DNA of 64,000 bases from IMG/VR virus record IMGVR_UViG_3300030329_003387. One strand, given 5' to 3'. The stretch comes from a virus. The position numbers were made by a program, and so were the translations under genes. Shown piece after piece: positions 5,277 to 40,013 of this stretch; positions within the stretch are counted from its first letter, which is position 1, and each line of letters opens with the position of its first letter. The notes below the pieces were generated by a model that worked only from the letters and a program-made list of their open reading frames with translations, ran no database searches and had not been told where the DNA came from.

Positions 5277-6266
5277 ATGTTTCACCAAGAAGTAATAGAT
5301 TTTTGGAATAGCGTATTTCAGGAAAAGATACCTCCTGAAGATATAATAAATGTCAAGTCTTGGATGGGTCTTGGTGATTGCAATTATGAAATCGACCACG
5401 ATGACGACTCAATTCCAGAGTCAGGCATTGTCTATTGCAACATAGAACACATACACAAATTTTTTGAAAAATGCAAACAAACAGATAACAAGTATATTGT
5501 TATCAGCGGCTTCAGCGACTACGGAGTTGCCAAGCAGGAAGAACATCCTCCAGCATATGACTTTATAAAGTTTATGCCTTTTCTCTATGGAGAGATAGTG
5601 AAGTTAGGCTATGACCCTCTGTTCATTCCTCCGAGGTGCGAAATAGAACAATGCAATATAGAAGACGAATACTCTGTTAGGTGTTACTCTTACACCTATT
5701 CTACTTTTGACAAGATACCAGACAACGTAGTTAAATGGTACACAGTAAACTCAAGAATTGAAGACCCAAGAATAATTCACATACCTTTAGGAGTTGGTAA
5801 AGATGCAACAGATGATATAATTGCTACCAATAAACTATCTTTTTCAGATAGAATCAATCTTGCATATTTTAATTTCCAAGATCACACAACAGAAAGAGCA
5901 GAACTTAAGAGATACTTCTCGCAAAGGCAATTTCACTGGACTAGCGTTGTACAAAATCCCGAAAGATCCTATAGAGATTATCTAGATGACCTTTCCAAAC
6001 ACTTCTTTGCGGTGTCGCCAGAAGGAAATGGATGGGATTGTTACAGAAATTTAGAGGCTTTATATACTGGTTGCATACCTGTAGTCTCTTACGCTCCATC
6101 AGCAAATTACATGACAGAATTGCCAGTTGTAGTTCTTGGTGATATGTTTGACTTATCTGAAAACTTATTGTTAGAATTTATTTCTACAAAACAAAACTTT
6201 AACTTAGACAAAATAAAACTTTCCTATTGGAAAAATAGAATAGAAGAATCAAGAAATCTTTTATAA
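5277..6266 (+). CDS. Exostosin/GT47-like glycosyltransferase
   Basis: C-terminal FAVSPEGNGWDCYRNLEALYTGCIPVV. Confidence 0.7.
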   Translation: MFHQEVIDFWNSVFQEKIPPEDIINVKSWMGLGDCNYEIDHDDDSIPESGIVYCNIEHIHKFFEKCKQTDNKYIVISGFSDYGVAKQEEHPPAYDFIKFMPFLYGEIVKLGYDPLFIPPRCEIEQCNIEDEYSVRCYSYTYSTFDKIPDNVVKWYTVNSRIEDPRIIHIPLGVGKDATDDIIATNKLSFSDRINLAYFNFQDHTTERAELKRYFSQRQFHWTSVVQNPERSYRDYLDDLSKHFFAVSPEGNGWDCYRNLEALYTGCIPVVSYAPSANYMTELPVVVLGDMFDLSENLLLEFISTKQNFNLDKIKLSYWKNRIEESRNLL

Positions 6267-6278
6267 CGGAGAACAAAA

Positions 6279-7379
6279 GTGGCGTTCTTACAATCCACAC
6301 AAAAATTCAACATTACAGCGCCTATCAACCAACTGGGCTACGGCGTGACAGGTCTTAATATTGTCAAGTCTCTTTTAGAGAGTGGTCAGGATGTGTCTCT
6401 TTTTGTTTTAGGACAAATTCAAGCAGATCCAAATTTGCATGGCTTCCTCAAAGGTTGTTTTGAGTCGGCAAGATTTCCAGACTTTGATGCGCCTTCAATT
6501 AGGCTCTGGCATCAAAATGACATGGCGGAATTTGTTGGCGCTGGAGTCAGGGTTGGTTTCCCAATCTTTGAATTAAATAAGTTTACCGATCAAGAAAAAC
6601 ATCATCTTAAATTCCCAGATAAACTTTTTGTTTGTTCTCAGTGGGCAAAAGACGTAATTCTAGAACAGCTTTCTCCTGACGTAAAAGAAGATGAGGTTTA
6701 TGTTATACCTCTGGGTGTTGACAGAAGTATTTTTAGAGATTCTGTTTCAAGTAGGCCAACAACAACATTCCTAAATATTGGCAAGTGGGAGGTTAGAAAA
6801 GGTCATGACGTTTTAGTAGAAGCCTTTAACAGGGCTTTTACTGAAGAAGACAATGCTGAACTTTGGATGATGTGTGACAACCCGTTTTATACTGACGATC
6901 AAAACTTTGAATGGGAAAGGAAGTATAGAGGTTCGGCTTTGGGTGAAAAGATTAGAATTATACCAAGACAAGAATCTCAACAGGACGTTTATCAGGTCAT
7001 GAGCCAAGCAGACTGTGGTGTATTTCCCGCAAGGGCAGAAGGGTGGAATCTTGAAGCGTTAGAAATGTTAGCTTGCGGCAAGCAGGTGATTGCCACAAAC
7101 TATTCAGGTCACACTGAGTTTCTGAACGAAGAAAACTCACTACTTGTAGAAGTCTCTGAGTTAGAGGATGCTCAAGACGGCATTTGGTTCAAAGGTCAAG
7201 GTCAGTGGGCAAAGATTGGCGACGAGCAGATAGATCAAATTGCAGAGCATATGAAGTCTGTTCATAAGCTAAAACAAAGTGATGAACTAAATATAAATCA
7301 AGCTGGTATTGATACATCGAAAGAGTTCTCTTGGGATGCTACCGTGCAGAAAATAATGAAAGCCGTGTCAGATGAATAA
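6279..7379 (+). CDS. GT4 (GT-B) glycosyltransferase
   Basis: RKGHDVL and FPARAEGWNLEALEMLACG motifs. Confidence 0.9.
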   Translation: MAFLQSTQKFNITAPINQLGYGVTGLNIVKSLLESGQDVSLFVLGQIQADPNLHGFLKGCFESARFPDFDAPSIRLWHQNDMAEFVGAGVRVGFPIFELNKFTDQEKHHLKFPDKLFVCSQWAKDVILEQLSPDVKEDEVYVIPLGVDRSIFRDSVSSRPTTTFLNIGKWEVRKGHDVLVEAFNRAFTEEDNAELWMMCDNPFYTDDQNFEWERKYRGSALGEKIRIIPRQESQQDVYQVMSQADCGVFPARAEGWNLEALEMLACGKQVIATNYSGHTEFLNEENSLLVEVSELEDAQDGIWFKGQGQWAKIGDEQIDQIAEHMKSVHKLKQSDELNINQAGIDTSKEFSWDATVQKIMKAVSDE

Positions 7380-8049
7380 AGAACACCCCCTGCAAAAAGC
7401 CTCTAAAGCTAGAGCGCAGAGTATAAACTCCATAAAATATACCGACGAACCTTCCGACAGAATCAAGAAAGATATGGATGTTGAGCTTGATCTCATCACT
7501 GTTGATTGGGAAAACTTAATTCCACCTCCGCCAGCTAACGACAGTGACTCCACAAAAATAGATCTGCAAATCCTTGAGAGAAAGACAAAGAATCTAACGG
7601 AAGAAGAAAGAAATTTAGTTCTCTTAGTTGATGACGATGCCTTTCAGCTTTTCTCTGACTACTGCAAAAAGAATAATCTTTACTATCCAGAAGATCTCAT
7701 AAGAAAAGTTCAGAAACAAACAAATGCTGTAATCCTAAAACTAAAGTATAAGTTTGGTAGAGCTAGACCTTATCAATTAGCTCCTGAGCTTGGTTATGTT
7801 ATATCAACATTACAAACTGATACGCATCACACTCCTTCGTATCCTTCTGGACATCAACATAACGGCGCTATAACCGCTGAAATACTGTCAGATATTTACC
7901 CTGAACACAAAACTCAGTGGTATAAGCTTGCAGATATGTGTGGTGAAGCCAGAGTTTTACAAGGAGTTCACTATCCTAGCGATAACGAAGCATCCATGAT
8001 TGTTTGTAGGCTACTCTGGGAAAACATAAAGGAAAACCTTAAAGAATGA
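7372..8049 (+). CDS. PAP2-family acid phosphatase
   Basis: KYKFGRARP, PSYPSGH and RVLQGVHYPSD catalytic motifs. Confidence 0.9.
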   Translation: MNKEHPLQKASKARAQSINSIKYTDEPSDRIKKDMDVELDLITVDWENLIPPPPANDSDSTKIDLQILERKTKNLTEEERNLVLLVDDDAFQLFSDYCKKNNLYYPEDLIRKVQKQTNAVILKLKYKFGRARPYQLAPELGYVISTLQTDTHHTPSYPSGHQHNGAITAEILSDIYPEHKTQWYKLADMCGEARVLQGVHYPSDNEASMIVCRLLWENIKENLKE

Positions 8050-8888
8050 TAAATGCTCTCATTGTCTCAAAAGACAGAGCATGTCAACTAAGACTTCTTT
8101 TAGAAAGTATAAAGCTTAACGCTGATAATTTTTTTAACCAAATATTGATAATCTATAAAGGGTCTAATTTTCTATACGAAGAAGGTTACAGAAAATTACA
8201 ATCCGAACAAATATTGCCTAACTTAGCTTGGCAGCAAGAACAAGACTTTGTCTCAGACTTCAAAAACGCAATCAATGGATGTGGCAGTCATTTTATCTGT
8301 GGCATTGTTGACGATTGCGTGTTCTATAAAAGAATCCCAATCACTTGGCAAGACGTAGAAAGCACATTTGAAGACGATGTGTTTTGCTTTTCTTTTAGGC
8401 TCGGCCTGAACACAACACTCCAGTATTACATGAAGCCAGACGGAAGGTATCATCTGGAGGACTATGGGGAAAATGCCTACTTTGTCAAATGGAACTGGAA
8501 GAATTGGGATAGCACCCTGAACTATGGATACCCCATATCTCTTGATGGACATGTATTCAGAACAAAACAACTGGCTGAATTAACAAACAAATACCCCTTT
8601 GACTACCTTCGTCAATGGGAGGGCGTAATAGCTGGTAAAAGCAGGAAAGATGTGCCTGAAGAAAACATGGTAGCCTGCAAACAGAATTGCCTGTTTAGTA
8701 TAGCTACAAACTGTGTCCAAGACCCTCCTCTGGTCGCTGGTCTTATGTATCCGTACACAGAAGAATACTTAAACAATAAGTATCTTAACGACGAAGTAAT
8801 AGACTTAAATGGCTTAGAGTACGGTTTTCAAAATGTAAATTGGTGTCACACTGAAATGCCATTCAAATTTAGGAGTTTAAATGTTTAA
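8046..8888 (+). CDS. GT-A-like glycosyltransferase (paralog of 17464-18321)
   Basis: SKDRACQLRLLLES, VDD, FRLGLNT, PISLDGH. Confidence 0.55.
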   Translation: MINALIVSKDRACQLRLLLESIKLNADNFFNQILIIYKGSNFLYEEGYRKLQSEQILPNLAWQQEQDFVSDFKNAINGCGSHFICGIVDDCVFYKRIPITWQDVESTFEDDVFCFSFRLGLNTTLQYYMKPDGRYHLEDYGENAYFVKWNWKNWDSTLNYGYPISLDGHVFRTKQLAELTNKYPFDYLRQWEGVIAGKSRKDVPEENMVACKQNCLFSIATNCVQDPPLVAGLMYPYTEEYLNNKYLNDEVIDLNGLEYGFQNVNWCHTEMPFKFRSLNV

Positions 8889-30697: not shown

Positions 30698-31487
30698 GAT
30701 AATTGGATTCTCTGGAGCAAAGCAAAGCGGTAAAACCACATCAACAAACTTCCTTTACGGATACCAACTTAGGGTAAATGATGTAATTGAGAAGTTTATG
30801 ATGAACCAAGACACTGGCGAACTTCTTGTTAACACAATAACAATTAATGAGAAGGGCGAGGAAGAAGAGGGATTGGGCATTCTCGACATTGAGAGAAGAG
30901 ATCCCGAATTTGTAGAATACGCAGCACAAGAAATTTGGCCTTATGTGAGATCGTTTAGTTTTGCCGACCCCCTCAAGATAATAGCGATACAACTATTCGG
31001 CCTGTCAGAAGAGCAGTGTTTCGGAACAGACGAAGATAAGAATTCACTTACGGATATTAGAATTCAAGACATGTCTAGGTTAATTTCTGGCCCAGATCAA
31101 ACGGAGCTTGTGAAGATATCAGAAGCAGAAGCTCATCTTACAGCAAGAGAATTTTTACAATACTTTGGAACAGATATATGCAGAAGACTCAAATCGGACA
31201 TATGGGTTCGCAGTTGTGTAAACAGAATAAAACAAAGCGGAACTGAACTAGCAATTGTTCCAGATATACGTTTCCCAAACGAAGTTAAAGCTATACGCAA
31301 AGCTGGAGGTAAGGTCATAAGACTGACAAGAAAGCCTCACGAAGATAGTCACGACAGTGAAACAGCTCTAGATGGCTTTAAAAAGTTTGATCATGTTATT
31401 GACAACCAAAACATGACGATTGACGAAACTAATAGAGCATTGTTAGAAATTATAAAGGAATGGGGATGGATAACTCCAAAGGCTTAA
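30690..31487 (+). CDS. Deoxynucleoside monophosphate kinase
   Basis: GAKQSGKTT, SFADPLK, REFLQYFGTD, DIRFPNE, HDSE. Confidence 0.9.
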   Translation: MSRIIGFSGAKQSGKTTSTNFLYGYQLRVNDVIEKFMMNQDTGELLVNTITINEKGEEEEGLGILDIERRDPEFVEYAAQEIWPYVRSFSFADPLKIIAIQLFGLSEEQCFGTDEDKNSLTDIRIQDMSRLISGPDQTELVKISEAEAHLTAREFLQYFGTDICRRLKSDIWVRSCVNRIKQSGTELAIVPDIRFPNEVKAIRKAGGKVIRLTRKPHEDSHDSETALDGFKKFDHVIDNQNMTIDETNRALLEIIKEWGWITPKA

Positions 31488-32023
31488 TCGTAGAAATTCC
31501 GTTTACACAGGATATGGTCAACTCTGCTAAAACTAAGGCTAAGCAGATGGGATCAATTAAGAATTCAATACTCAAGGGTAAAGGTAACTTTGCTGGATTT
31601 CTTGGGGAAGAAGCCGTCGCTGCGTACATCAGTGCGGATATTATTAGTTTTGAAGAGGGAGATGCCAAATACGGGCATGATATCCTCAAAAATGACAGAA
31701 GGATTGAAGTAAAGACTAAAAGGCGCACAGTCGCTCCAAAGCCTTTCTATGACGTTTCAGTCGCTGCTACAAGCAAGCACCAAGCGGACAAGAGAGGGTT
31801 AGATCTTTACATTTTTGCGAGCATACAGTTTGATGGTCACACGCCGAAGAGGATATGGATCATCGGACAAAAAGACAGGGATCAATATTTCAAACAGGCT
31901 AGGTTTATCAAAAAAGGAGAGAGTGAAGGCAACAATGGTTTTCGCGCTCATACTGACATGTACAATTTGATAACTACAGAATTAGATGGTTTAGATGATA
32001 GTTTGCTACCACAGAAGCAGTAG
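31460..32023 (+). CDS. PD-(D/E)XK nuclease-like protein
   Basis: GEEAV, HDI, IEVKT. Confidence 0.65.
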   Translation: MGMDNSKGLIVEIPFTQDMVNSAKTKAKQMGSIKNSILKGKGNFAGFLGEEAVAAYISADIISFEEGDAKYGHDILKNDRRIEVKTKRRTVAPKPFYDVSVAATSKHQADKRGLDLYIFASIQFDGHTPKRIWIIGQKDRDQYFKQARFIKKGESEGNNGFRAHTDMYNLITTELDGLDDSLLPQKQ

Positions 32024-33014
32024 TTTAGGAACTCTGGAGTTCTGCGAACAAAAGTATTTTCTCCAGTACAATCTATCCTACAAGGACAAGACGAACAAAA
32101 AAGCTCTCATGGGTACTATTACCCATAAGGTTATGCAGATACTTGGAGACAAGTCACTGGCTGTTGCCAAAGGTGAAGACAAGGTCGTTGATGACGAGCT
32201 TGGTACTTTTACACTGAAGCAATGTGACGATCTATCGTATGTAAATGACTTGGCTTTTGACTATTATGTCAACAATTTTCCAGAGGTTGTCCTTACGGAC
32301 TCTGAAAAACGAACCTGCTTAAAATGGGCTGAGAAAGCCGTGGCCTATCAGGATGGAATGTTTGATCCTAGAAATCAAGATGTATTTGCGACAGAGCTTT
32401 TCTTCGACATTGAAATACAGGAAAACTGGGCAAAGTACAACTACAGGGTAGGTAAAGAAAATGTCAAAGGCAACTTGGCTATAAAGGGAACCGTTGACTT
32501 AATCGTAAAACAGGGCGAAAACTATTACGAGATACTAGATTATAAAACCGGCAAGAGAATTAACTGGGCTACTGGAGAAGAGAAGACTTTAGAGAAGCTA
32601 CAAAAAGACACTCAGCTCCTCCTGTATTACTACGCCCTAAAAAACATGTACCCAGAAGCAGAGTTTTCTGTAAGCATTTTTTATATTAACGCTGGTGGTG
32701 TTTTCTCAATGGTCTTTGACGAAGACGACTACAAAAAAGCAGAAAACATATTGAGACAAAAATTTGAGAAAATTAAGAGAAGTCAAAATCCAAAACTCTT
32801 ATCTAACGAAAACTCACATTGGAAGTGCCGCAAGCTCTGTAAGTTTAGCCAACCTTACAAAGAAGGTTCAAAGAAAAGTGTGTGTCAGCATATTAGAGAT
32901 GAAATAAGAAAAGACGGAATCTTAAAAGTTGTTGAAAAATACGGAGATGTCAACAAGCTGTCAGCATACGGAGATGGCGGCGGTAGACTCGCAGAAGATA
33001 CTAAGAAAAAATGA
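31995..33014 (+). CDS. Cas4/AddB-like PD-(D/E)XK exonuclease
   Basis: N-terminal C, GTVDL, DYKTG, QLLLY and C-terminal Cys cluster CRKLC...C. Confidence 0.85.
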   Translation: MIVCYHRSSSLGTLEFCEQKYFLQYNLSYKDKTNKKALMGTITHKVMQILGDKSLAVAKGEDKVVDDELGTFTLKQCDDLSYVNDLAFDYYVNNFPEVVLTDSEKRTCLKWAEKAVAYQDGMFDPRNQDVFATELFFDIEIQENWAKYNYRVGKENVKGNLAIKGTVDLIVKQGENYYEILDYKTGKRINWATGEEKTLEKLQKDTQLLLYYYALKNMYPEAEFSVSIFYINAGGVFSMVFDEDDYKKAENILRQKFEKIKRSQNPKLLSNENSHWKCRKLCKFSQPYKEGSKKSVCQHIRDEIRKDGILKVVEKYGDVNKLSAYGDGGGRLAEDTKKK

Positions 33015-34918
33015 ATTGGACTCCATTACATTTACACAGTCACTACAGCCTACTTGATGGCCTGTCTAGGCCGCAACAGATCGCAAGCAGGTGTGCAGAC
33101 TTGGGATTTAGCTCTTGCGCACTGACAGATCACGGAACCGTGTCTGGAGCTGTCTCTTTCACTAAGGCTTGTAAAGCAAAAAATATCAAACCTGTGTTAG
33201 GCTGTGAGTTCTATCTCAGTCAAGACGACGCAACGGTAAAAGAAACATCAAACAGAACCCTGAGTCATCTTGTAGTGCTGGCAAAGAACAAGACTGGCTG
33301 GGGAAAATTGATCGAGGCTGTATCTCGCAGTAACGATGAAGATGTTTATTATTACAAGCCGCGATTAGACTTAGATTTGCTCGGTCAATATGCTAACGGA
33401 GACCTTTTGGCTTTTAGTGGGCATTTAGGCAGCGACATGGCTAACGCGATTTTTACAGACTATAAAGCTGCGTATGGTCAAGAAACAGAGGCTGGAGTTA
33501 AGAAGTATATAGACCCAAGCTGGGTTGAGAAAGTCACAAAAGTCGCATACAAATATATGGATATATTTGGTAAAGAAAACTTTCTAATCGAAGTGCAGTG
33601 TATAGACCAAGATAACTCTCCAGCAGCAAAGCTTGTAGCGCAAGGGATGCGCTATATCGCTAAAACATTAAAGATACCCTCGATAGCGACCTCAGACTCA
33701 CACTATCCAGAAAAGAAGGATTCACCAGACCACCTACTACTTTTGTGTTCTGCGATGAAAACAACTCTTAGAAAGATAAAAAGCAAGTTAGATAACAATG
33801 AGGACGTTGGTTTCTCTGGGTTTATGAAGTCTAACAACTTCCACATCCCAACTTTACAAGAGATGAAGGCAATACATACAGAAGCTGAATTGCAGAATAC
33901 CATGCATGTGGCCGACATGTGTGAAAGCTATGACATTCTTGGTCAGCCAATGTTGCCTAAGTTTAAATGCCCAGAAGACATGGCGGAAGAGGCTTACCTA
34001 AAACATTTATGCAGAGAGGGATGGAAAAATTTCCTCATGCCAAGTGGTAAGATAAACACAAAAACATCTGAAGATATATATGCCGACAGAATAAAAAAAG
34101 AACTTAAAGTCATAAGTGATGCAAACCTGTCTGGATACTTTCTGATAGTAAGAGATATAGTTAACAATATTAGATCAAACTCTTGGATTCCCGGACCCGG
34201 AAGAGGTTCTGCTGCTGGATGCTTGGTTTCTTATTTGGTGGGCATAACACAGGTTGATCCCATTGAGTATGGATTAATCTTTGAAAGATTTTATAACGCC
34301 GGAAGAAATACAGAAGATCACATATCACTTCCAGATATTGACATAGATGTACCGGCATCCAGAAGGGACGACACCATAGACTATATAAGAGACAAGTATG
34401 GACATTCAAAAGTAAGTCAAATGGTTACATTTGGAAGACTTCAAGGGCGAAGCGCACTTAAAGAAGTTCTACGTATGAATGAGGCTTGCGGTTATGACGA
34501 AATGAATGTCATAACAAAAAGTCTACCACCCGAACATGAAATATCTGACCAACTAGCGGACATGGACGATCCATCAGTAATACGGTGGACTTTGATAAAT
34601 CAGCCGGAAGTCTTGAGAGAGTATTGCAGGATGAATGACGAAGGCGAGCTAGAGGGCGACTATGCAAAATTGTTTGAACAAGCAATGCGCATTGAAGGTA
34701 CATTCAAGTCTCAGGGTAAGCACGCAGCTGGAGTTGTAATTTCCTCCAATAATTTGAACGAGGTATGTCCTATGGTTAGAGACAAATCTAGTTCAGAAAA
34801 AATGGCCGGTATGGAAATGAACGACCTTGAGGCTATGGGTCATGTCAAGTTTGATGTTTTAGGCATCTCACTTTTAGATAAAGTAATGGGTATTAGAGAC
34901 CAACTGGAAGAATCTTAA
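33011..34918 (+). CDS. dnaE: DNA polymerase III alpha, N-terminal part (PHP, palm, thumb)
   Basis: HLHSHYSLLDG, TDHG, GRGSAAG, PDIDID, HAAG, KFDVLG; ends about 20 aa after KFD. Confidence 0.95.
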   Translation: MNWTPLHLHSHYSLLDGLSRPQQIASRCADLGFSSCALTDHGTVSGAVSFTKACKAKNIKPVLGCEFYLSQDDATVKETSNRTLSHLVVLAKNKTGWGKLIEAVSRSNDEDVYYYKPRLDLDLLGQYANGDLLAFSGHLGSDMANAIFTDYKAAYGQETEAGVKKYIDPSWVEKVTKVAYKYMDIFGKENFLIEVQCIDQDNSPAAKLVAQGMRYIAKTLKIPSIATSDSHYPEKKDSPDHLLLLCSAMKTTLRKIKSKLDNNEDVGFSGFMKSNNFHIPTLQEMKAIHTEAELQNTMHVADMCESYDILGQPMLPKFKCPEDMAEEAYLKHLCREGWKNFLMPSGKINTKTSEDIYADRIKKELKVISDANLSGYFLIVRDIVNNIRSNSWIPGPGRGSAAGCLVSYLVGITQVDPIEYGLIFERFYNAGRNTEDHISLPDIDIDVPASRRDDTIDYIRDKYGHSKVSQMVTFGRLQGRSALKEVLRMNEACGYDEMNVITKSLPPEHEISDQLADMDDPSVIRWTLINQPEVLREYCRMNDEGELEGDYAKLFEQAMRIEGTFKSQGKHAAGVVISSNNLNEVCPMVRDKSSSEKMAGMEMNDLEAMGHVKFDVLGISLLDKVMGIRDQLEES

Positions 34919-34919
34919 T

Positions 34920-35171
34920 ATGAGTAGACAATTTATAAAAGATAGGATTGAGAACAAAAGATACGTTGAGTTCAAATCTCTGTCGATATGCAAAATAAAT
35001 GATTTTTATGACAGGATGGTACAAAAAGATATGTATCAAGTTCACTGCTCCAACCCTAAATGCTTACAGCAAAAAGAATCTACATCAAAAAAAATACCAT
35101 TCAGTATGCTTTACGAAGATATTGAACAAGCGTTAAATAAATTTATTGAACTAAGGAAAAAGATAAGATGA
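34920..35171 (+). CDS. Hypothetical protein between the dnaE halves
   Basis: ORF track; ATGA overlap with the exonuclease. Confidence 0.65.
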   Translation: MSRQFIKDRIENKRYVEFKSLSICKINDFYDRMVQKDMYQVHCSNPKCLQQKESTSKKIPFSMLYEDIEQALNKFIELRKKIR

Positions 35172-35851
35172 ATTACAGAGATATTATTGTATTTGACTTT
35201 GAGACGGGTGGTAGAAACCCATATAAGTGTCAACCGACACAAATTGCCGCAGTTGCTATTCATGGGCGCAAGCTCACCGTGCAGCCCGGAGGTTATTTTA
35301 ATAGTGAAATACGACCTATTTTAGATGACGATAAGGCTATTGAGCTGGGTTTAGATCCAGTAGAGGACGAAGCTCTCGCCGTCACTAGAAAGAATAGAGA
35401 AGATTTAGCAAAAGCGCCGCAGCCAAAAGCGGTTTGGCAAAAGTTCACAAACTTTGTCAATAAGTACAACTTCAAAAAAACAAACTACTACGCTCCTATC
35501 GCTGCTGGTTACAACATAATTGGTTTCGACATGCCTATCGTTGAACGTATGTGCCAACAATATGGTCCTACGCACAACAAGTCAGGCAGGCAGGGCTTGT
35601 TTAATCCTATTCACAAGGTTGATTTAATGCATACGGTATGGATGTGGATGGAGAACAACGCAGACGTTAAATCCTTAAGTATGGATTCAATGAGAGACTT
35701 GCTTGGTATGGACAAAGAAAATGCCCATGACGCTTTACAAGACGTAAAAGACACTGCCAATCTATTAATTGCCTTCATGAAGCTTATCAGAAGGGTTTCT
35801 CCTAGCGTAAAATTTGAAAAGGCATTTGCAGATGGAAACATCCACCTTTGA
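35168..35851 (+). CDS. dnaQ: DEDDh 3'-5' exonuclease (epsilon/DnaQ-like)
   Basis: DFETGG, YNIIGFD, HDALQD. Confidence 0.88.
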   Translation: MNYRDIIVFDFETGGRNPYKCQPTQIAAVAIHGRKLTVQPGGYFNSEIRPILDDDKAIELGLDPVEDEALAVTRKNREDLAKAPQPKAVWQKFTNFVNKYNFKKTNYYAPIAAGYNIIGFDMPIVERMCQQYGPTHNKSGRQGLFNPIHKVDLMHTVWMWMENNADVKSLSMDSMRDLLGMDKENAHDALQDVKDTANLLIAFMKLIRRVSPSVKFEKAFADGNIHL

Positions 35852-37403
35852 TCCTATAAACCTATCTTTTGACGACGAGTCCACATGGGACACAATCTGT
35901 AGCGGAAGAACAAAGGGCGTTTTTCAGTTAGAGAGTAGTTTAGGAAGAAGTTGGGCTAAGAAAGTTAAGCCCAAGAATATGGAAGAGCTTTCCGACTTAA
36001 TAGCCATCATCCGTCCGGGATGTTTAAAAGCTATAGTTGATGGAAAGTCTATGACTCAACATTACGTCGATAGGAAGAATGGTGAAGAGTCAGTAACATA
36101 TTTACACGAATCATTAGAGCCAATCCTAAAGAAAACTCAGGGTGTACTTGTTTATCAAGAGCAGTCAATGCAGATAGCTCAACAGTTAGCTGGTTTTAGC
36201 CTTCAGGACGCTGACGACCTTCGTAAGGCCATCGGCAAAAAGAAGGCAGATCTAATGGCTAAAGTAAAGAAGTCTTTCTTAACTGGGGCTGATAGTAAAG
36301 GTATCGTTACCAAAGAAACGGCTGAAGAGATTTTTAGTTGGATTGAAAAATCTAGCCGTTACGCCTTTAACAAATCTCATGCTGTTAGTTATGCTATTTG
36401 CGGATATTGGAGCGCATACGCTAAAACGCATTATCCGCTACAGTTCTACTGTAACTATCTTAGGTATTCGGGCGGAAAGCCAGATCCACAGAAAGAAGTC
36501 AAGGAGCTTGTCACAGACGCTAAGTCTAACGATATATTCATACATCCTCCATCCTTAGATCATCTCAACGAAGAGACTGACGTAATAAACGACACAATCT
36601 ACTTTGGACTCAAAAACGTCAAGTCTCTAGGCTCTAATACGATAGCAACAATAAGAGATAATATTTCTGATCTAAAAGAGTCTTTGAAATCAAAGGAATG
36701 GACTTGGTATGAATTTTTAGTCCTCATTTCTAGGAAGATAAACAAAACGGCAACCAGAGCTTTAATATCGTCTGGAGTTTTGTCAAACCTTAAAGTTTCA
36801 AGACAAAAGATGCTCTATGAATTTGACACGTTTGAAAAGCTATCCAACAAAGAAATAGAATGGGTTTCAGAAAATTACCAAGCCTTTGACTCGTTGCTAG
36901 AGCTTCTTAGAAGTCTAGGTAGACCGAGAAAAGAGGGTGGCGGGGTTACAAATAAGAATAGACTGGAGATAGTAAAAGATTTGATACAGCAGCTAGAAGA
37001 TCCGCCAGTCTCCCTACACGACGATCCAGAGTGGATAGTTAGAACGGAAGAAAATTACTACGGCGTGTCACTAACCTTTTCCAAAGTAGAGTCTTCAGAT
37101 ACCAGCAGGGCTGACACCACATGTAAAGATCTCATCAATGGCAAAGAGGGCAAGGTCATGATTGCCGCAACAGTTTCCGAAACGAGGAAGTATGTACCGA
37201 AAAAGGGCAAGAACGCTGGCAATGAAATGGGTTTTTTAGAGATAGAGGATGCTACTGGTAGCGTTGATAATATAACTCTTTTTAATGAAGCTTGGATTAA
37301 ATATAAAAATGTTCTATATAATGGAAACAATATACTTATAATAGGAAAATCATCCAAGGGCAAAAGAGATGGCGTTATAGTAGACGAAATATTTGAACTG
37401 TAG
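35832..37403 (+). CDS. dnaE: DNA polymerase III alpha, C-terminal part (fingers, HhH, OB)
   Basis: GVFQLES, RPG, YQEQ, LRKAIGKK, YAFNKSHA, IEDATG OB fold. Confidence 0.95.
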   Translation: METSTFDPINLSFDDESTWDTICSGRTKGVFQLESSLGRSWAKKVKPKNMEELSDLIAIIRPGCLKAIVDGKSMTQHYVDRKNGEESVTYLHESLEPILKKTQGVLVYQEQSMQIAQQLAGFSLQDADDLRKAIGKKKADLMAKVKKSFLTGADSKGIVTKETAEEIFSWIEKSSRYAFNKSHAVSYAICGYWSAYAKTHYPLQFYCNYLRYSGGKPDPQKEVKELVTDAKSNDIFIHPPSLDHLNEETDVINDTIYFGLKNVKSLGSNTIATIRDNISDLKESLKSKEWTWYEFLVLISRKINKTATRALISSGVLSNLKVSRQKMLYEFDTFEKLSNKEIEWVSENYQAFDSLLELLRSLGRPRKEGGGVTNKNRLEIVKDLIQQLEDPPVSLHDDPEWIVRTEENYYGVSLTFSKVESSDTSRADTTCKDLINGKEGKVMIAATVSETRKYVPKKGKNAGNEMGFLEIEDATGSVDNITLFNEAWIKYKNVLYNGNNILIIGKSSKGKRDGVIVDEIFEL

Positions 37404-37432
37404 TTGCAAAAGCTCTTTAGTGAGCGTATATT
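37404..37432 (+). promoter_or_regulatory. Sigma70-type promoter of ssb
   Basis: TTGCAA-17 nt-TATATT. Confidence 0.6.
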
Positions 37433-37469
37433 GTATGTAGTAAGAACAACTTATTGCAAGGATGGTACT

Positions 37470-37886
37470 ATGAACACTATTTCAAATTATTGCCGATTTA
37501 TTGGTCGCCTAACTGAAGACCCACATCTCATCAAAGTAGACAAAACAGAGTTATGTCGATTTACTTTAGCCGTAACTGAATATAGGCGAGAAAAAAGCCC
37601 TGACGGAGAAAGTAAGAAAAAGAAGAGCGTAAATTACTTTGATTTTGAAGCTTGGGACACCGGAGCGACAACTCTTGGCAAATATTGTAAAAAGGGTGAC
37701 ATAGTAGATGTAGTGACCTCAGCTAGAAATAATAACTGGACAGACAAAGAAGGAAACAAAAAGTTTCAGACAAGATTTAGAGTGAAAGAGTTTAAGCTTT
37801 TTAACACAAATCAAAACACGTCTAGTGTTCCGGATGGGGCGAGCAATGAAGGTAAGCTCGAAAAATCCGAACTGCTAAATGAATAA
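37470..37886 (+). CDS. ssb: Single-stranded DNA-binding protein
   Basis: IGRLTEDP, FTLAV, AW, KKG, WTDKEG. Confidence 0.9.
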   Translation: MNTISNYCRFIGRLTEDPHLIKVDKTELCRFTLAVTEYRREKSPDGESKKKKSVNYFDFEAWDTGATTLGKYCKKGDIVDVVTSARNNNWTDKEGNKKFQTRFRVKEFKLFNTNQNTSSVPDGASNEGKLEKSELLNE

Positions 37887-38376
37887 ACAGAGAAGAAATA
37901 CAACGGACAAAGAGCTTGAAGACCAACTAATTCGTAACAATTACGGACTGGTTGTTAGTCAAGCTCTTTCTTTTTTATCTAAAAACTCTAGCTTAGATGA
38001 ATTTATACAGGCCGGACTGATAGGTCTGCTAAGAGCTATAAGACAACATGATGAAGATATATCTAAGTTTTCTACCTATGCTACCGTATGCATTAGGAAT
38101 GAGATACAAAAACTAAAAAGCAAAAACAAAGACAAAGATGTTAAAGTATTCTTTGACAACAATCTTTTAGCAAAAAGTCTAAAAGATAAGTACTATATAA
38201 AAGAAAGCTTCTTTGATTATGTGCCGGATTATCTATCAGAAGAAGAGAACTTCATACTCAAGCTAAAGCTTGAAAATTATACCAACGCAGAAATTTGCGA
38301 TTTTCTAAATTGCACTAGAGTTGTTTTGAATAAAAAATTAGAGACGCTCTTTGAAAAAATTAGGGAAGCTAATTGA
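37879..38376 (+). CDS. Second sigma70-family factor
   Basis: NYGLV, QAGLIGLLRA, KFSTYATVCIRNEI; degenerate region 4. Confidence 0.85.
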   Translation: MNKQRRNTTDKELEDQLIRNNYGLVVSQALSFLSKNSSLDEFIQAGLIGLLRAIRQHDEDISKFSTYATVCIRNEIQKLKSKNKDKDVKVFFDNNLLAKSLKDKYYIKESFFDYVPDYLSEEENFILKLKLENYTNAEICDFLNCTRVVLNKKLETLFEKIREAN

Positions 38377-40013
38377 TGAGAAAGAAAAGAATATTATTTT
38401 GCGGAGAGGCTACCTATCTAAATACAGGTTATGCAACTTATGGTAGAGAAGTTTTAAACAGGCTTTACCAAACAGATAAGTACGAATTAGCAGAATTTGC
38501 TAGTTATGGGACTCCAGAAGAAGCCGCAAAGAACAATATTCCGTGGACTTTTTATCCAAACATGCCCGACACCTCTAACAAAGCTGAGGTAGATCAATAC
38601 AACTCCATTCCTACAAACCAGTTTGGGGAATGGAGATTTGAGGAAGTGTTGCTTAGCTTCAAACCGGATATTGTTTTTGACATTCGAGATTTTTGGATGC
38701 TTGACTATCAAAGTAGGTCGCCATTCAGAAGGATGTTTCATTGGGTTATAATGCCTACAGTAGATGCTTCCCCACAAAACGAACAATGGTTGGCTACATT
38801 TTCTGAAGCTGACGGCGTTTTTAATTATTCTGATTGGGGATATGAGGTTCTAAAAGAAGAGTCTAACGGCGCTATTAATTGTTTGGGTAGCGCTCCTCCT
38901 TCTGCCGACCAAGCCTACCAACCAGTAGCAAGCAAAAGAAAGCATAAATCTGAACTAGGGTTTGACCCAGATAGTAAAATAATTGGCACTGTAATGCGCA
39001 ACCAAAGAAGGAAGTTATTTCCTGATTTGTTTGAAGCTTTTAGAAAGTTTTTAGATAAGAGTGGTAGCAGTGACGTTTTTCTATACTGCCACACTAGCTA
39101 TCCAGACATTGGATGGGACATACCCAAACTACTGAACAAATACGCACTGTCAAGCAAGGTCATCTTTACATATGTATGCCCAAGCTGTGGTCATGCTTTT
39201 CCATCGTTTTTTGCTGACGCAAAGACAAAATGCCCAAGATGCGGCGGTTCTGGAGCTGGATTATCAAGCGTAAAGAATGGAACGAGCTATGAATTCCTTG
39301 CTTCTATCATGAATACGTTTGATCTGTACGTTCAGTATGCAAACAGTGAAGGTTTCGGTTTGCCACAGGTTGAAGCAGCTGCTTGTGGAGTGCCTGTCAT
39401 GAGCATTGATTACTCTGCCATGAGTAGTGTTGTTAGAAAATTGGGAGGAATACCATTAAAGCCAAAAGCTCTCTACAACGAAATGGAAACTGGTTGTGAC
39501 AGGGCAGTACCCGACAACGACAAGACTGCGGAGGAGATGAAAAAGTTCTTCGACATGTCAGATAAAGATCGTCAATTTTTAGGAAAGCTTTGCAAGGCGA
39601 ACTTTGATAAATACTACCAATGGGATTCAACCGCTAAGAAATGGGAGCAGTATTTTGATTCTTTAGAAATTAGACCCGATCAAGAAACTTGGCTGTCACC
39701 ACCCAGAATACACCACCCAGATATAGACGTTCCTGCCTATCTCCCTACACAAGAGTATGCTCAATGGCTGATAGTCAATGTTTTAGGAGAGCCTGAAAGA
39801 CTTAATACTTATTTTGAAGCAAGAATGATTAGAGATCTAAATTATGGGATGTACATAGAAGGCACTGGAGATATGTACTTCAATGAGGACTCTTATAAGT
39901 TTGTTCGCCCAGAATATCAGCCGTTTGATAAAGAAATTGCATACAAGGTTGTTGCTGACCTTGCAGAGAGAAGGAATTTCTGGGAATCAAAAAGGAAAGA
40001 GGTGGTTAGATGA
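38376..40013 (+). CDS. GT4 glycosyltransferase with inserted zinc ribbon
   Basis: TGY, RNQRRK, EGFGLPQVEAAACG; CPSC...CPRC insertion. Confidence 0.88.
   Translation: MRKKRILFCGEATYLNTGYATYGREVLNRLYQTDKYELAEFASYGTPEEAAKNNIPWTFYPNMPDTSNKAEVDQYNSIPTNQFGEWRFEEVLLSFKPDIVFDIRDFWMLDYQSRSPFRRMFHWVIMPTVDASPQNEQWLATFSEADGVFNYSDWGYEVLKEESNGAINCLGSAPPSADQAYQPVASKRKHKSELGFDPDSKIIGTVMRNQRRKLFPDLFEAFRKFLDKSGSSDVFLYCHTSYPDIGWDIPKLLNKYALSSKVIFTYVCPSCGHAFPSFFADAKTKCPRCGGSGAGLSSVKNGTSYEFLASIMNTFDLYVQYANSEGFGLPQVEAAACGVPVMSIDYSAMSSVVRKLGGIPLKPKALYNEMETGCDRAVPDNDKTAEEMKKFFDMSDKDRQFLGKLCKANFDKYYQWDSTAKKWEQYFDSLEIRPDQETWLSPPRIHHPDIDVPAYLPTQEYAQWLIVNVLGEPERLNTYFEARMIRDLNYGMYIEGTGDMYFNEDSYKFVRPEYQPFDKEIAYKVVADLAERRNFWESKRKEVVR

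Follow-up and report, generated by a model that had tools for sequence, protein, structure and literature searches.

Introduction

DnaE-type DNA polymerases of the C family are described as single chains (Taq, 2HPI; E. coli, 2HNH/5FKU; M. tuberculosis, 5LEW), and the relatives P0136, P0166 and P0177 are built in the same way. Here we report on a dnaE at positions 33011–37403 of a 64,000-nucleotide (nt) stretch of virus DNA, which is called the window below. It has the same domains in the same order, with intact motifs; however, its chain is broken between the DNA_pol3_alpha and DNA_pol3_finger domains, and the break is occupied by other genes. The window belongs to the 93-kb IMG/VR virus record IMGVR_UViG_3300030329_003387 (estimated to be 62% complete), a metagenome contig of an uncultured marine phage.

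The split DnaE of cyanobacteria is likewise made in two pieces. In the 'fractured genes' of Dassa et al. (2009; PMC2677866), the pieces are also adjacent, with a homing endonuclease gene between them, and split inteins ligate their products. In contrast, the present dnaE has no intein, is broken at another site, and carries an exonuclease gene and a micro-protein gene in its gap.

Phage replicative polymerases consisting of two separately translated, non-covalently joined chains have been demonstrated experimentally in family B. The account of Petrov et al. (2010, cited in PMC2988022) covers gp43A/gp43B of Aeromonas phages 25 and 44RR, and gives the phage 25 chains as co-purifying and active; DNAP-N and DNAP-C of PhiKZ form a stable, active 1:1 complex (PMC13648687). 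The present case differs in that it belongs to family C and is known from genes alone; moreover, PhiKZ has a palm-insertion domain built from both chains, which the clade of the window lacks. The experimental precedent for an intein-free split is confined to family B; it counts in favour of a non-covalent reading here. Within family C, Iyer et al. (2021; PMC7824862) described group 2.2 jumbo phages in which a minimal Pol III alpha is encoded as two stand-alone proteins by distant genes, beside a family-B polymerase. That version has no PHP or other domains, whereas here a full-length DnaE is cut once, its halves are separated by one to seven genes, and it was the only polymerase found. Rossellomorea phage phiT1 has a dnaE in two coding sequences (CDSs) broken in the same linker, but no exonuclease gene in the gap.

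Surveys of the C family (PMC3919608, PMC12926913, PMC3201878) regard fragments as errors or attribute them to inteins, or are silent on the present form. In a full-text literature search, no paper was found in which a full-length DnaE is divided between palm and fingers and an exonuclease gene occupies the gap. The feature is real and widespread, is conserved and looks functional, and it falls under the known 'genes in pieces' polymerases. It very likely encodes a C-family replicase assembled non-covalently from two chains.

Results and discussion

A full-length DnaE broken in a variable linker

Four abutting or overlapping genes on the + strand occupy 33011–37403. The features, with lengths in amino acids (aa), are as follows.

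33011..34918, + strand: DnaE N half, 635 aa, with PHP, palm and thumb (Pfam, PHROG 405 and Taq DnaE alignment)
34920..35171, + strand: small conserved protein, 83 aa, starting 1 nt past the N-half stop
35168..35851, + strand: DEDDh (DnaQ/RNase T-type) 3'-5' exonuclease, 227 aa (Pfam RNase_T, PHROG 192)
35832..37403, + strand: DnaE C half, 523 aa from a conserved ATG, with fingers, HhH and an OB-like end
35832..35851, + strand: exonuclease/C-half overlap, 20 nt, with the ATG 17 nt before the exonuclease stop; contains CTT TGA

The C half would be 529 aa long if counted from a TTG at 35814; the ATG at 35832 was also chosen by gene callers in other assemblies.

The N half matched Pfam PHP (134.7 bits) and DNA_pol3_alpha (PF07733; 234 bits, model positions 2–260 of 260). 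The C half matched DNA_pol3_finger (PF17657; 163 bits, model positions 16–165) and HHH_6 (PF14579; 31 bits), both above the cut-off, and its match to OB (PF01336) was weak, at 20.1 bits under a cut-off of 27. On PHROG 405, a contiguous polymerase model of 1190 positions, the N half covered 42–616 and the C half 622–1070; on Taq DnaE (2HPI), they aligned with residues 7–626 and 645–945, respectively. Matches to E. coli alpha stopped at 563 and restarted at 585. Together the halves thus hold the PHP, palm/thumb and fingers/HhH/OB regions of a DnaE-type polymerase, but not in a single polypeptide: a stop at 34916–34918 and a new start at 35832 separate them, with two genes in between.

PDIDID and KFDVLG were present in the N half and aligned to Taq DnaE. 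When the halves were compared with the contiguous relatives P0136, P0166, P0177, P0130 and P0209, only 5–10 residues of the N-half tail and 6–13 of the C-half head remained unaligned, and these take the place of a poorly conserved linker of 2–16 aa. The alignments place the break within a variable linker and show neither loss nor duplication of conserved residues. An earlier prediction made from the letters of the window alone (hereafter the original prediction) had described a 635-aa N part ending about 20 aa after KFDVLG, a 523-aa C part, intact motifs in both, and almost no loss or duplication at a break situated at the palm/fingers junction and away from the cyanobacterial split-intein site. 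All of this was borne out by the reading frames, Pfam, PHROG 405 and Taq DnaE alignments; the measured distance from KFDVLG to the N-half end is 18 aa.

All nine PHP positions that we take to be metal ligands were filled in the N half, with His in place of Cys at Taq residue 138 (also Cys in M. tuberculosis). The filled set suggests that the PHP domain (33011–33790) may be catalytically competent beside the DEDDh exonuclease.

The arrangement is conserved and under purifying selection

The window comes from a metagenome contig, and misassembly had been named in the original prediction as a possible refutation. At least 23 contigs, assembled from independent samples and some of them from Tara Oceans, carried the identical N half, and the same four genes were present at all places shown. 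Eight IMG/VR loci with 72–100% identity kept the order N half, small gene, exonuclease, C half wherever the contig reached, and 31 loci found through the small open reading frame (ORF) had the same gene order where the flank sufficed; some of these 39 IMG/VR look-up hits lie on the same contigs. Since the arrangement recurred in dozens of independent assemblies from different samples, at 43–100% identity, this synteny survey ruled out misassembly, and the chance that an assembly or sequencing artefact explains the locus is negligible.

The ratio of non-synonymous to synonymous substitution rates (dN/dS) was calculated for loci L005 and L007, between which dS was 0.6–1.4. The N half gave 0.017, the small ORF 0.051, the exonuclease 0.020 and the C half 0.025. 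All four genes are under strong purifying selection.

These data also bear on the idea that the split gene is decaying or repurposed, with the host Pol III or another phage polymerase replicating the genome and the halves having separate roles or no role in polymerization. The incompleteness of the record would leave room for this, as would the lack of any clamp or clamp loader seen in it. However, dN/dS is about 0.02 on both halves, the catalytic motifs and all PHP ligand positions are intact, and the halves co-occur in order at every locus with enough flank. Moreover, the genes sit in a complete replication module (DnaB, primase, SSB, RecA and nucleases), and neither PolA nor PolB was found in the 93-kb record. 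We consider decay or repurposing very unlikely.

The halves do not appear to be rejoined

In the intein-split DnaEs the pieces become one chain, and covalent rejoining by RNA splicing, translational bypass or protein trans-splicing would have to remove a 0.9-kb insert here. Several relatives make this conceivable: P0135, P0144 and P0164 carry inteins, and P0130 and P0209 have probable split-intein ends, although at other sites. Phage polymerase genes often host introns, and the dnaE of Bacillus phage vB_BceM_WH1 is in three pieces.

The original prediction had reported no intein signatures, and our searches agreed: none of the four proteins matched a Hint or intein family at E ≤ 0.01, and PF14890 had no match in the whole 93-kb record. 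Because only 5–13 residues per terminus are unaligned, the ends being flush with contiguous homologues, there is no room for intein fragments. No homing endonuclease was found between the halves; the gap consists of the RNase_T exonuclease and the 83-aa protein, which had no endonuclease family match. Rfam gave nothing at E ≤ 1 over 32000–38500, a search that a novel intron class could escape. The insert is almost wholly protein-coding, consisting of two genes under purifying selection. Furthermore, gap length and content vary among relatives (0.15–4 kb), and a gap holding from one to seven differing genes is incompatible with any one splicing or hopping mechanism. The N half ends with TAA in the window, TGA in L003 and TAG in L005; as all three stops occur there, no recoding or reassignment of a stop codon can join the halves. 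Taken together, these results make rejoining extremely improbable and leave two non-covalently assembled chains as the preferred reading.

Inverted repeats of 13 nt flank the insert in the window (34937–34949 and 35858–35870). They were considered as an RNA pairing that might unite the halves and rejected, as they are not conserved in L003, L005 or L014.

The dnaE of vB_BceM_WH1 (L023; LC597490.1, 194353–198551) is annotated as gp235–gp237, with the pieces about 720 and 400 nt apart. Its interruptions are probably introns or other insertions at different sites.

Gene junctions point to coupled translation

The spacing between the genes is tight: 1 nt between the N half and the small gene, an ATGA overlap between the small gene and the exonuclease, and the 20-nt overlap between the exonuclease and the C half. 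This suggests coupled translation from one transcript. Within the operon, counts of promoters and terminators were at or below the shuffled expectation, with none between genes on the + strand.

In the window, the exonuclease gene ends in CAC CTT TGA T, with CTT TGA at 35846–35851, and the +1 frame is that of the C half. A programmed +1 frameshift at this prfB-like CUU UGA would produce an exonuclease–C-half fusion, so that the enzyme would consist of an N chain and an Exo–fingers fusion. However, CTT TGA was present in only 2 of 21 distinct junctions; others read ATT TGA, ATA TAA, ATC TAA, TTA TAA, GTT TAG, GAT TAA and so on. The last sense codon varied among CTT, ATT, ATA, ATC, TTA, TTT, GTT and GAT, and the stop among TGA, TAA and TAG, so the prfB-like frameshift was rejected as a family feature. 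In addition, the exonuclease gene is followed by a TylF-like gene in seven loci and by a GlmS-like gene in L010, and no strong Shine-Dalgarno-like stimulator was seen 3 nt upstream when the window junction was read by eye.

What is conserved is the ATG before the exonuclease stop, as ordinary reinitiation requires. Twenty of the 21 junctions retained it; its distance from the stop was 17 nt in 17 cases and 11–20 nt in the other three. The next gene starts from it, be this the C half or the TylF-like gene. A kept ATG with a variable codon and stop is the signature of termination–reinitiation coupling, not of a programmed frameshift. Thus, such coupling is the likely meaning of the junction, and a frameshift fusion is highly improbable.

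The intervening exonuclease and small protein

The exonuclease matched Pfam RNase_T (49.5 bits) and PHROG 192, 'DNA polymerase exonuclease subunit'. Its motifs FDFET, GFDMP and HDALQD aligned to the PolC exonuclease domain 2P1J and to ExoI, in keeping with the intact DEDDh enzyme that had been predicted between the halves. It is the only RNase_T gene of the 93-kb record, and it is probably an epsilon-like proofreader of the complex.

In L003, a relative with 82% identity, the exonuclease start (7926–7935) is ATT instead of ATG (TCATTAATTAC versus AGATGAATTAC in the window). The frame is still open, and the first ATG would drop the Exo I motif; either ATT is used as a rare start here or the sequence contains an error.

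Thirty-one IMG/VR loci encoded the 83-aa protein, in each case after the N half and before the exonuclease. Homologues of it were present in L010 (hhalign 96.9%) and L014, so that three clades in all carry the small protein. No homologue was detected in L012 by sequence comparison, and an unrelated 315-aa protein stands in its place; in the replication module of the contiguous relative L017, where no sequence search was made, no gene of this size was called. The only ORF in the phiT1 gap (49 aa) had no evident similarity to it. The protein had no match in Pfam, PHROGs or the protein atlas, and no similarity to the 165/167-aa PHROG 13596 proteins, the 315-aa L012 protein or the 78-aa L010 protein. 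It was modelled by AlphaFold2 as an alpha-beta4-alpha fold (pLDDT 85.9). Fold matches to YkuJ (Z 6.2) and AP2 (Z 5.1), with Foldseek E ≥ 0.1, are below the level of trust, and its identification as a remnant of an AP2-like protein or homing endonuclease was rejected.

The original prediction had proposed the 83-aa protein as a possible assembly subunit. As a universal part this did not hold, the protein being missing in L012; position and conservation leave an assembly role possible, and the protein may be a lineage-restricted accessory.

In L014, the N-half frame (6001–8049) continues for about 45 codons after the point where it normally stops, and the small ORF (7937–8164) begins inside it in another frame. 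N halves in this clade (66% identity) are 666–693 aa long, and because of the overlap gene callers miss the small ORF.

A probable two-chain replicase

Non-covalent, multi-subunit assembly, as originally proposed, remains the best reading of the locus and is, in our judgement, very probable; from gene architecture and selection we infer physical assembly, activity, stoichiometry and exonuclease–PHP binding. The catalytic aspartates would reside on the N chain, together with PHP, palm and thumb, and nucleotide and template would be bound by the C chain through its fingers, HhH duplex-binding domain and OB. As neither could polymerize by itself, the two would have to assemble non-covalently across the natural palm/fingers interface. 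Coupled translation of the four genes from one transcript would yield near-equal amounts of the products. The exonuclease would act as the epsilon-like proofreader of the complex, bound presumably to the PHP domain in what we take to be the E. coli alpha–epsilon mode.

Several points weigh against this reading. The record is incomplete, and another polymerase may lie elsewhere in the genome. No sliding clamp that would account for processivity was found in the 93 kb. In the clade of the window, no added docking module was found at the new termini.

If the two-chain reading is true, the enzyme would give family C its first replicative polymerase demonstrated to function as a pair of chains with no intein. 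The palm/fingers linker would then stand out as a place where a cut is naturally tolerated, of use in engineering split enzymes and in studying palm–fingers communication. This would surprise a replication specialist somewhat, and it is directly testable.

The two-piece form dominates a large group of aquatic phages

The best 120 clusters at 90% identity (53–100% identical to the N half) were all 490–690 aa long, with DNA_pol3_alpha and no fingers; PHP was present in all but one truncated cluster. Among the nearest 150 representatives of 50%-identity clusters (37–57% identical), 141 ended at the same site. Six ran on into the fingers: three were plain full-length proteins, one had a fingers intein, and two ended in a weak N-intein-like segment past the fingers. 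The remaining three comprised two truncated sequences and an N half fused to a circularly permuted YpsA (cpYpsA) SLOG domain. The closest contiguous metagenomic relatives were 46–47% identical. Judged by these sequence comparisons, most members of a very large assemblage of marine and freshwater phages, with hundreds of relatives, have the two-piece form; annotation pipelines that expect one dnaE gene mis-describe the replisome of these abundant phages.

The SLOG fusion (P0237; L019, 2028–4316) joins the domain to the C-terminus of the N half (PF12694, E = 1.6e-35). Downstream of it are the exonuclease gene and what is probably the C half.

In trees built with FastTree (154 rows) and IQ-TREE (51 rows), the aquatic group formed one clade (98*), and the contiguous forms were two well-supported clades nested among the split ones. 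One split followed by two re-fusions would be the most parsimonious history. In an approximately unbiased (AU) test, a single clade of all aquatic split forms was not rejected (log-likelihood difference 52, p = 0.173), and the trees therefore do not settle the polarity, that is, whether the contiguous forms are re-fused or basal.

A broader scenario may be put forward only tentatively, and we regard it as rather unlikely in its full extent. In it, the split would be ancestral to the large aquatic clade and the nested contiguous DnaEs would be re-fusions; the exonuclease and, mostly, the micro-protein would bridge the two chains, giving a four-subunit core replicase whose break doubles as a landing site.

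When cultured phages were searched at the DNA level with the window, the sole match was 94 nt long and lay in Chryseobacterium phage MA9V-3, a phage with a contiguous dnaE. A cultured counterpart is Rossellomorea phage phiT1 (L020; PV767480.1, 9714–12996), which infects Bacillaceae. Its dnaE consists of gp20 (573 aa) and gp18 (469 aa), with the 49-aa gp19 between them, and is broken in the same linker (...FDLLGLKTLKVIQNSVDQINQGVAV* / MFDILDIPLDD...GVFQLES). The N half is about 32% identical to that of the window and groups with contiguous DnaEs outside the aquatic clade. No close relative of phiT1 was found among cultured phages, and no paper on its split was found. The phiT1 case, resting on one record, is probably an independent break at the same permissive linker, and it offers a tractable cultured model for an intein-free split DnaE.

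The break accepts varied cargo

Gaps ranged from 0.15 to 4 kb across relatives and held from one gene (the 49-aa ORF of phiT1, outside the aquatic clade) to seven. Representative arrangements, with the identity of the N half to that of the window, are listed below.

L014, 66% identical: small ORF (overlapped by the extended N-half frame), 165-aa PHROG 13596 protein, exonuclease
L012, 53% identical: 315-aa glycosyltransferase-like protein, exonuclease
L010, 55% identical: 4-kb gap with seven genes, namely a 78-aa protein, small-ORF homologue, UDG, PHROG 13596 protein, exonuclease, GlmS-like protein and 37-aa ORF
Seven loci, about 72–75% identical: TylF-like methyltransferase between the exonuclease and the C half

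L017, a contiguous relative, shares the replication module, with the exonuclease gene upstream of dnaE. The original prediction had pictured a polymerase wrapped around its exonuclease. An exonuclease does lie in the window gap, but the family is better described by a break site that accepts cargo of one to seven genes, with the exonuclease upstream in L017. On this gene content, the break is a hot spot for new genes, and its variable gap is a clear example of a broken essential gene turning into a cargo site.

The TylF-like insert is a S-adenosylmethionine (SAM) methyltransferase (L036, 4362–5099; PF05711, E = 2.4e-8; also in L037, L044, L045, L049, L051 and L053). It takes over the overlapped ATG (METS...), and the C half then restarts as MNTFDP. 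A Cys-rich extension (S/M-CGC-[EK]F ... C-x2-3-TW) opens the C half in L010 (11987), L012 (9535) and L014 (9309) and is lacking in the clade of the window; it may be a small metal-binding docking element.

Neighbouring genes in the replication module

Two neighbours flank the four genes.

31995..33014, + strand: PD-(D/E)XK (Cas4/Dna2-like) nuclease (Pfam PDDEXK_1, 80 bits), the upstream neighbour in the replication module
37404..37886, + strand: SSB (Pfam SSB, 58.5 bits), with no spacer after the C half, as called from a TTG

The start of the N half overlaps the stop of the PD-(D/E)XK nuclease gene, and this neighbour was also present in L010, L012, L014, L017 and L018. Other assemblies of the same phage have a shorter SSB of 138 aa, which starts about 66 nt further downstream.

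An ORF of 187 aa at 31460–32023, also in the replication module, had no Pfam family and was unrelated to the PHROG 13596 proteins from the gap of relatives; its D...EVK motif suggests that it encodes a PD-(D/E)XK nuclease.

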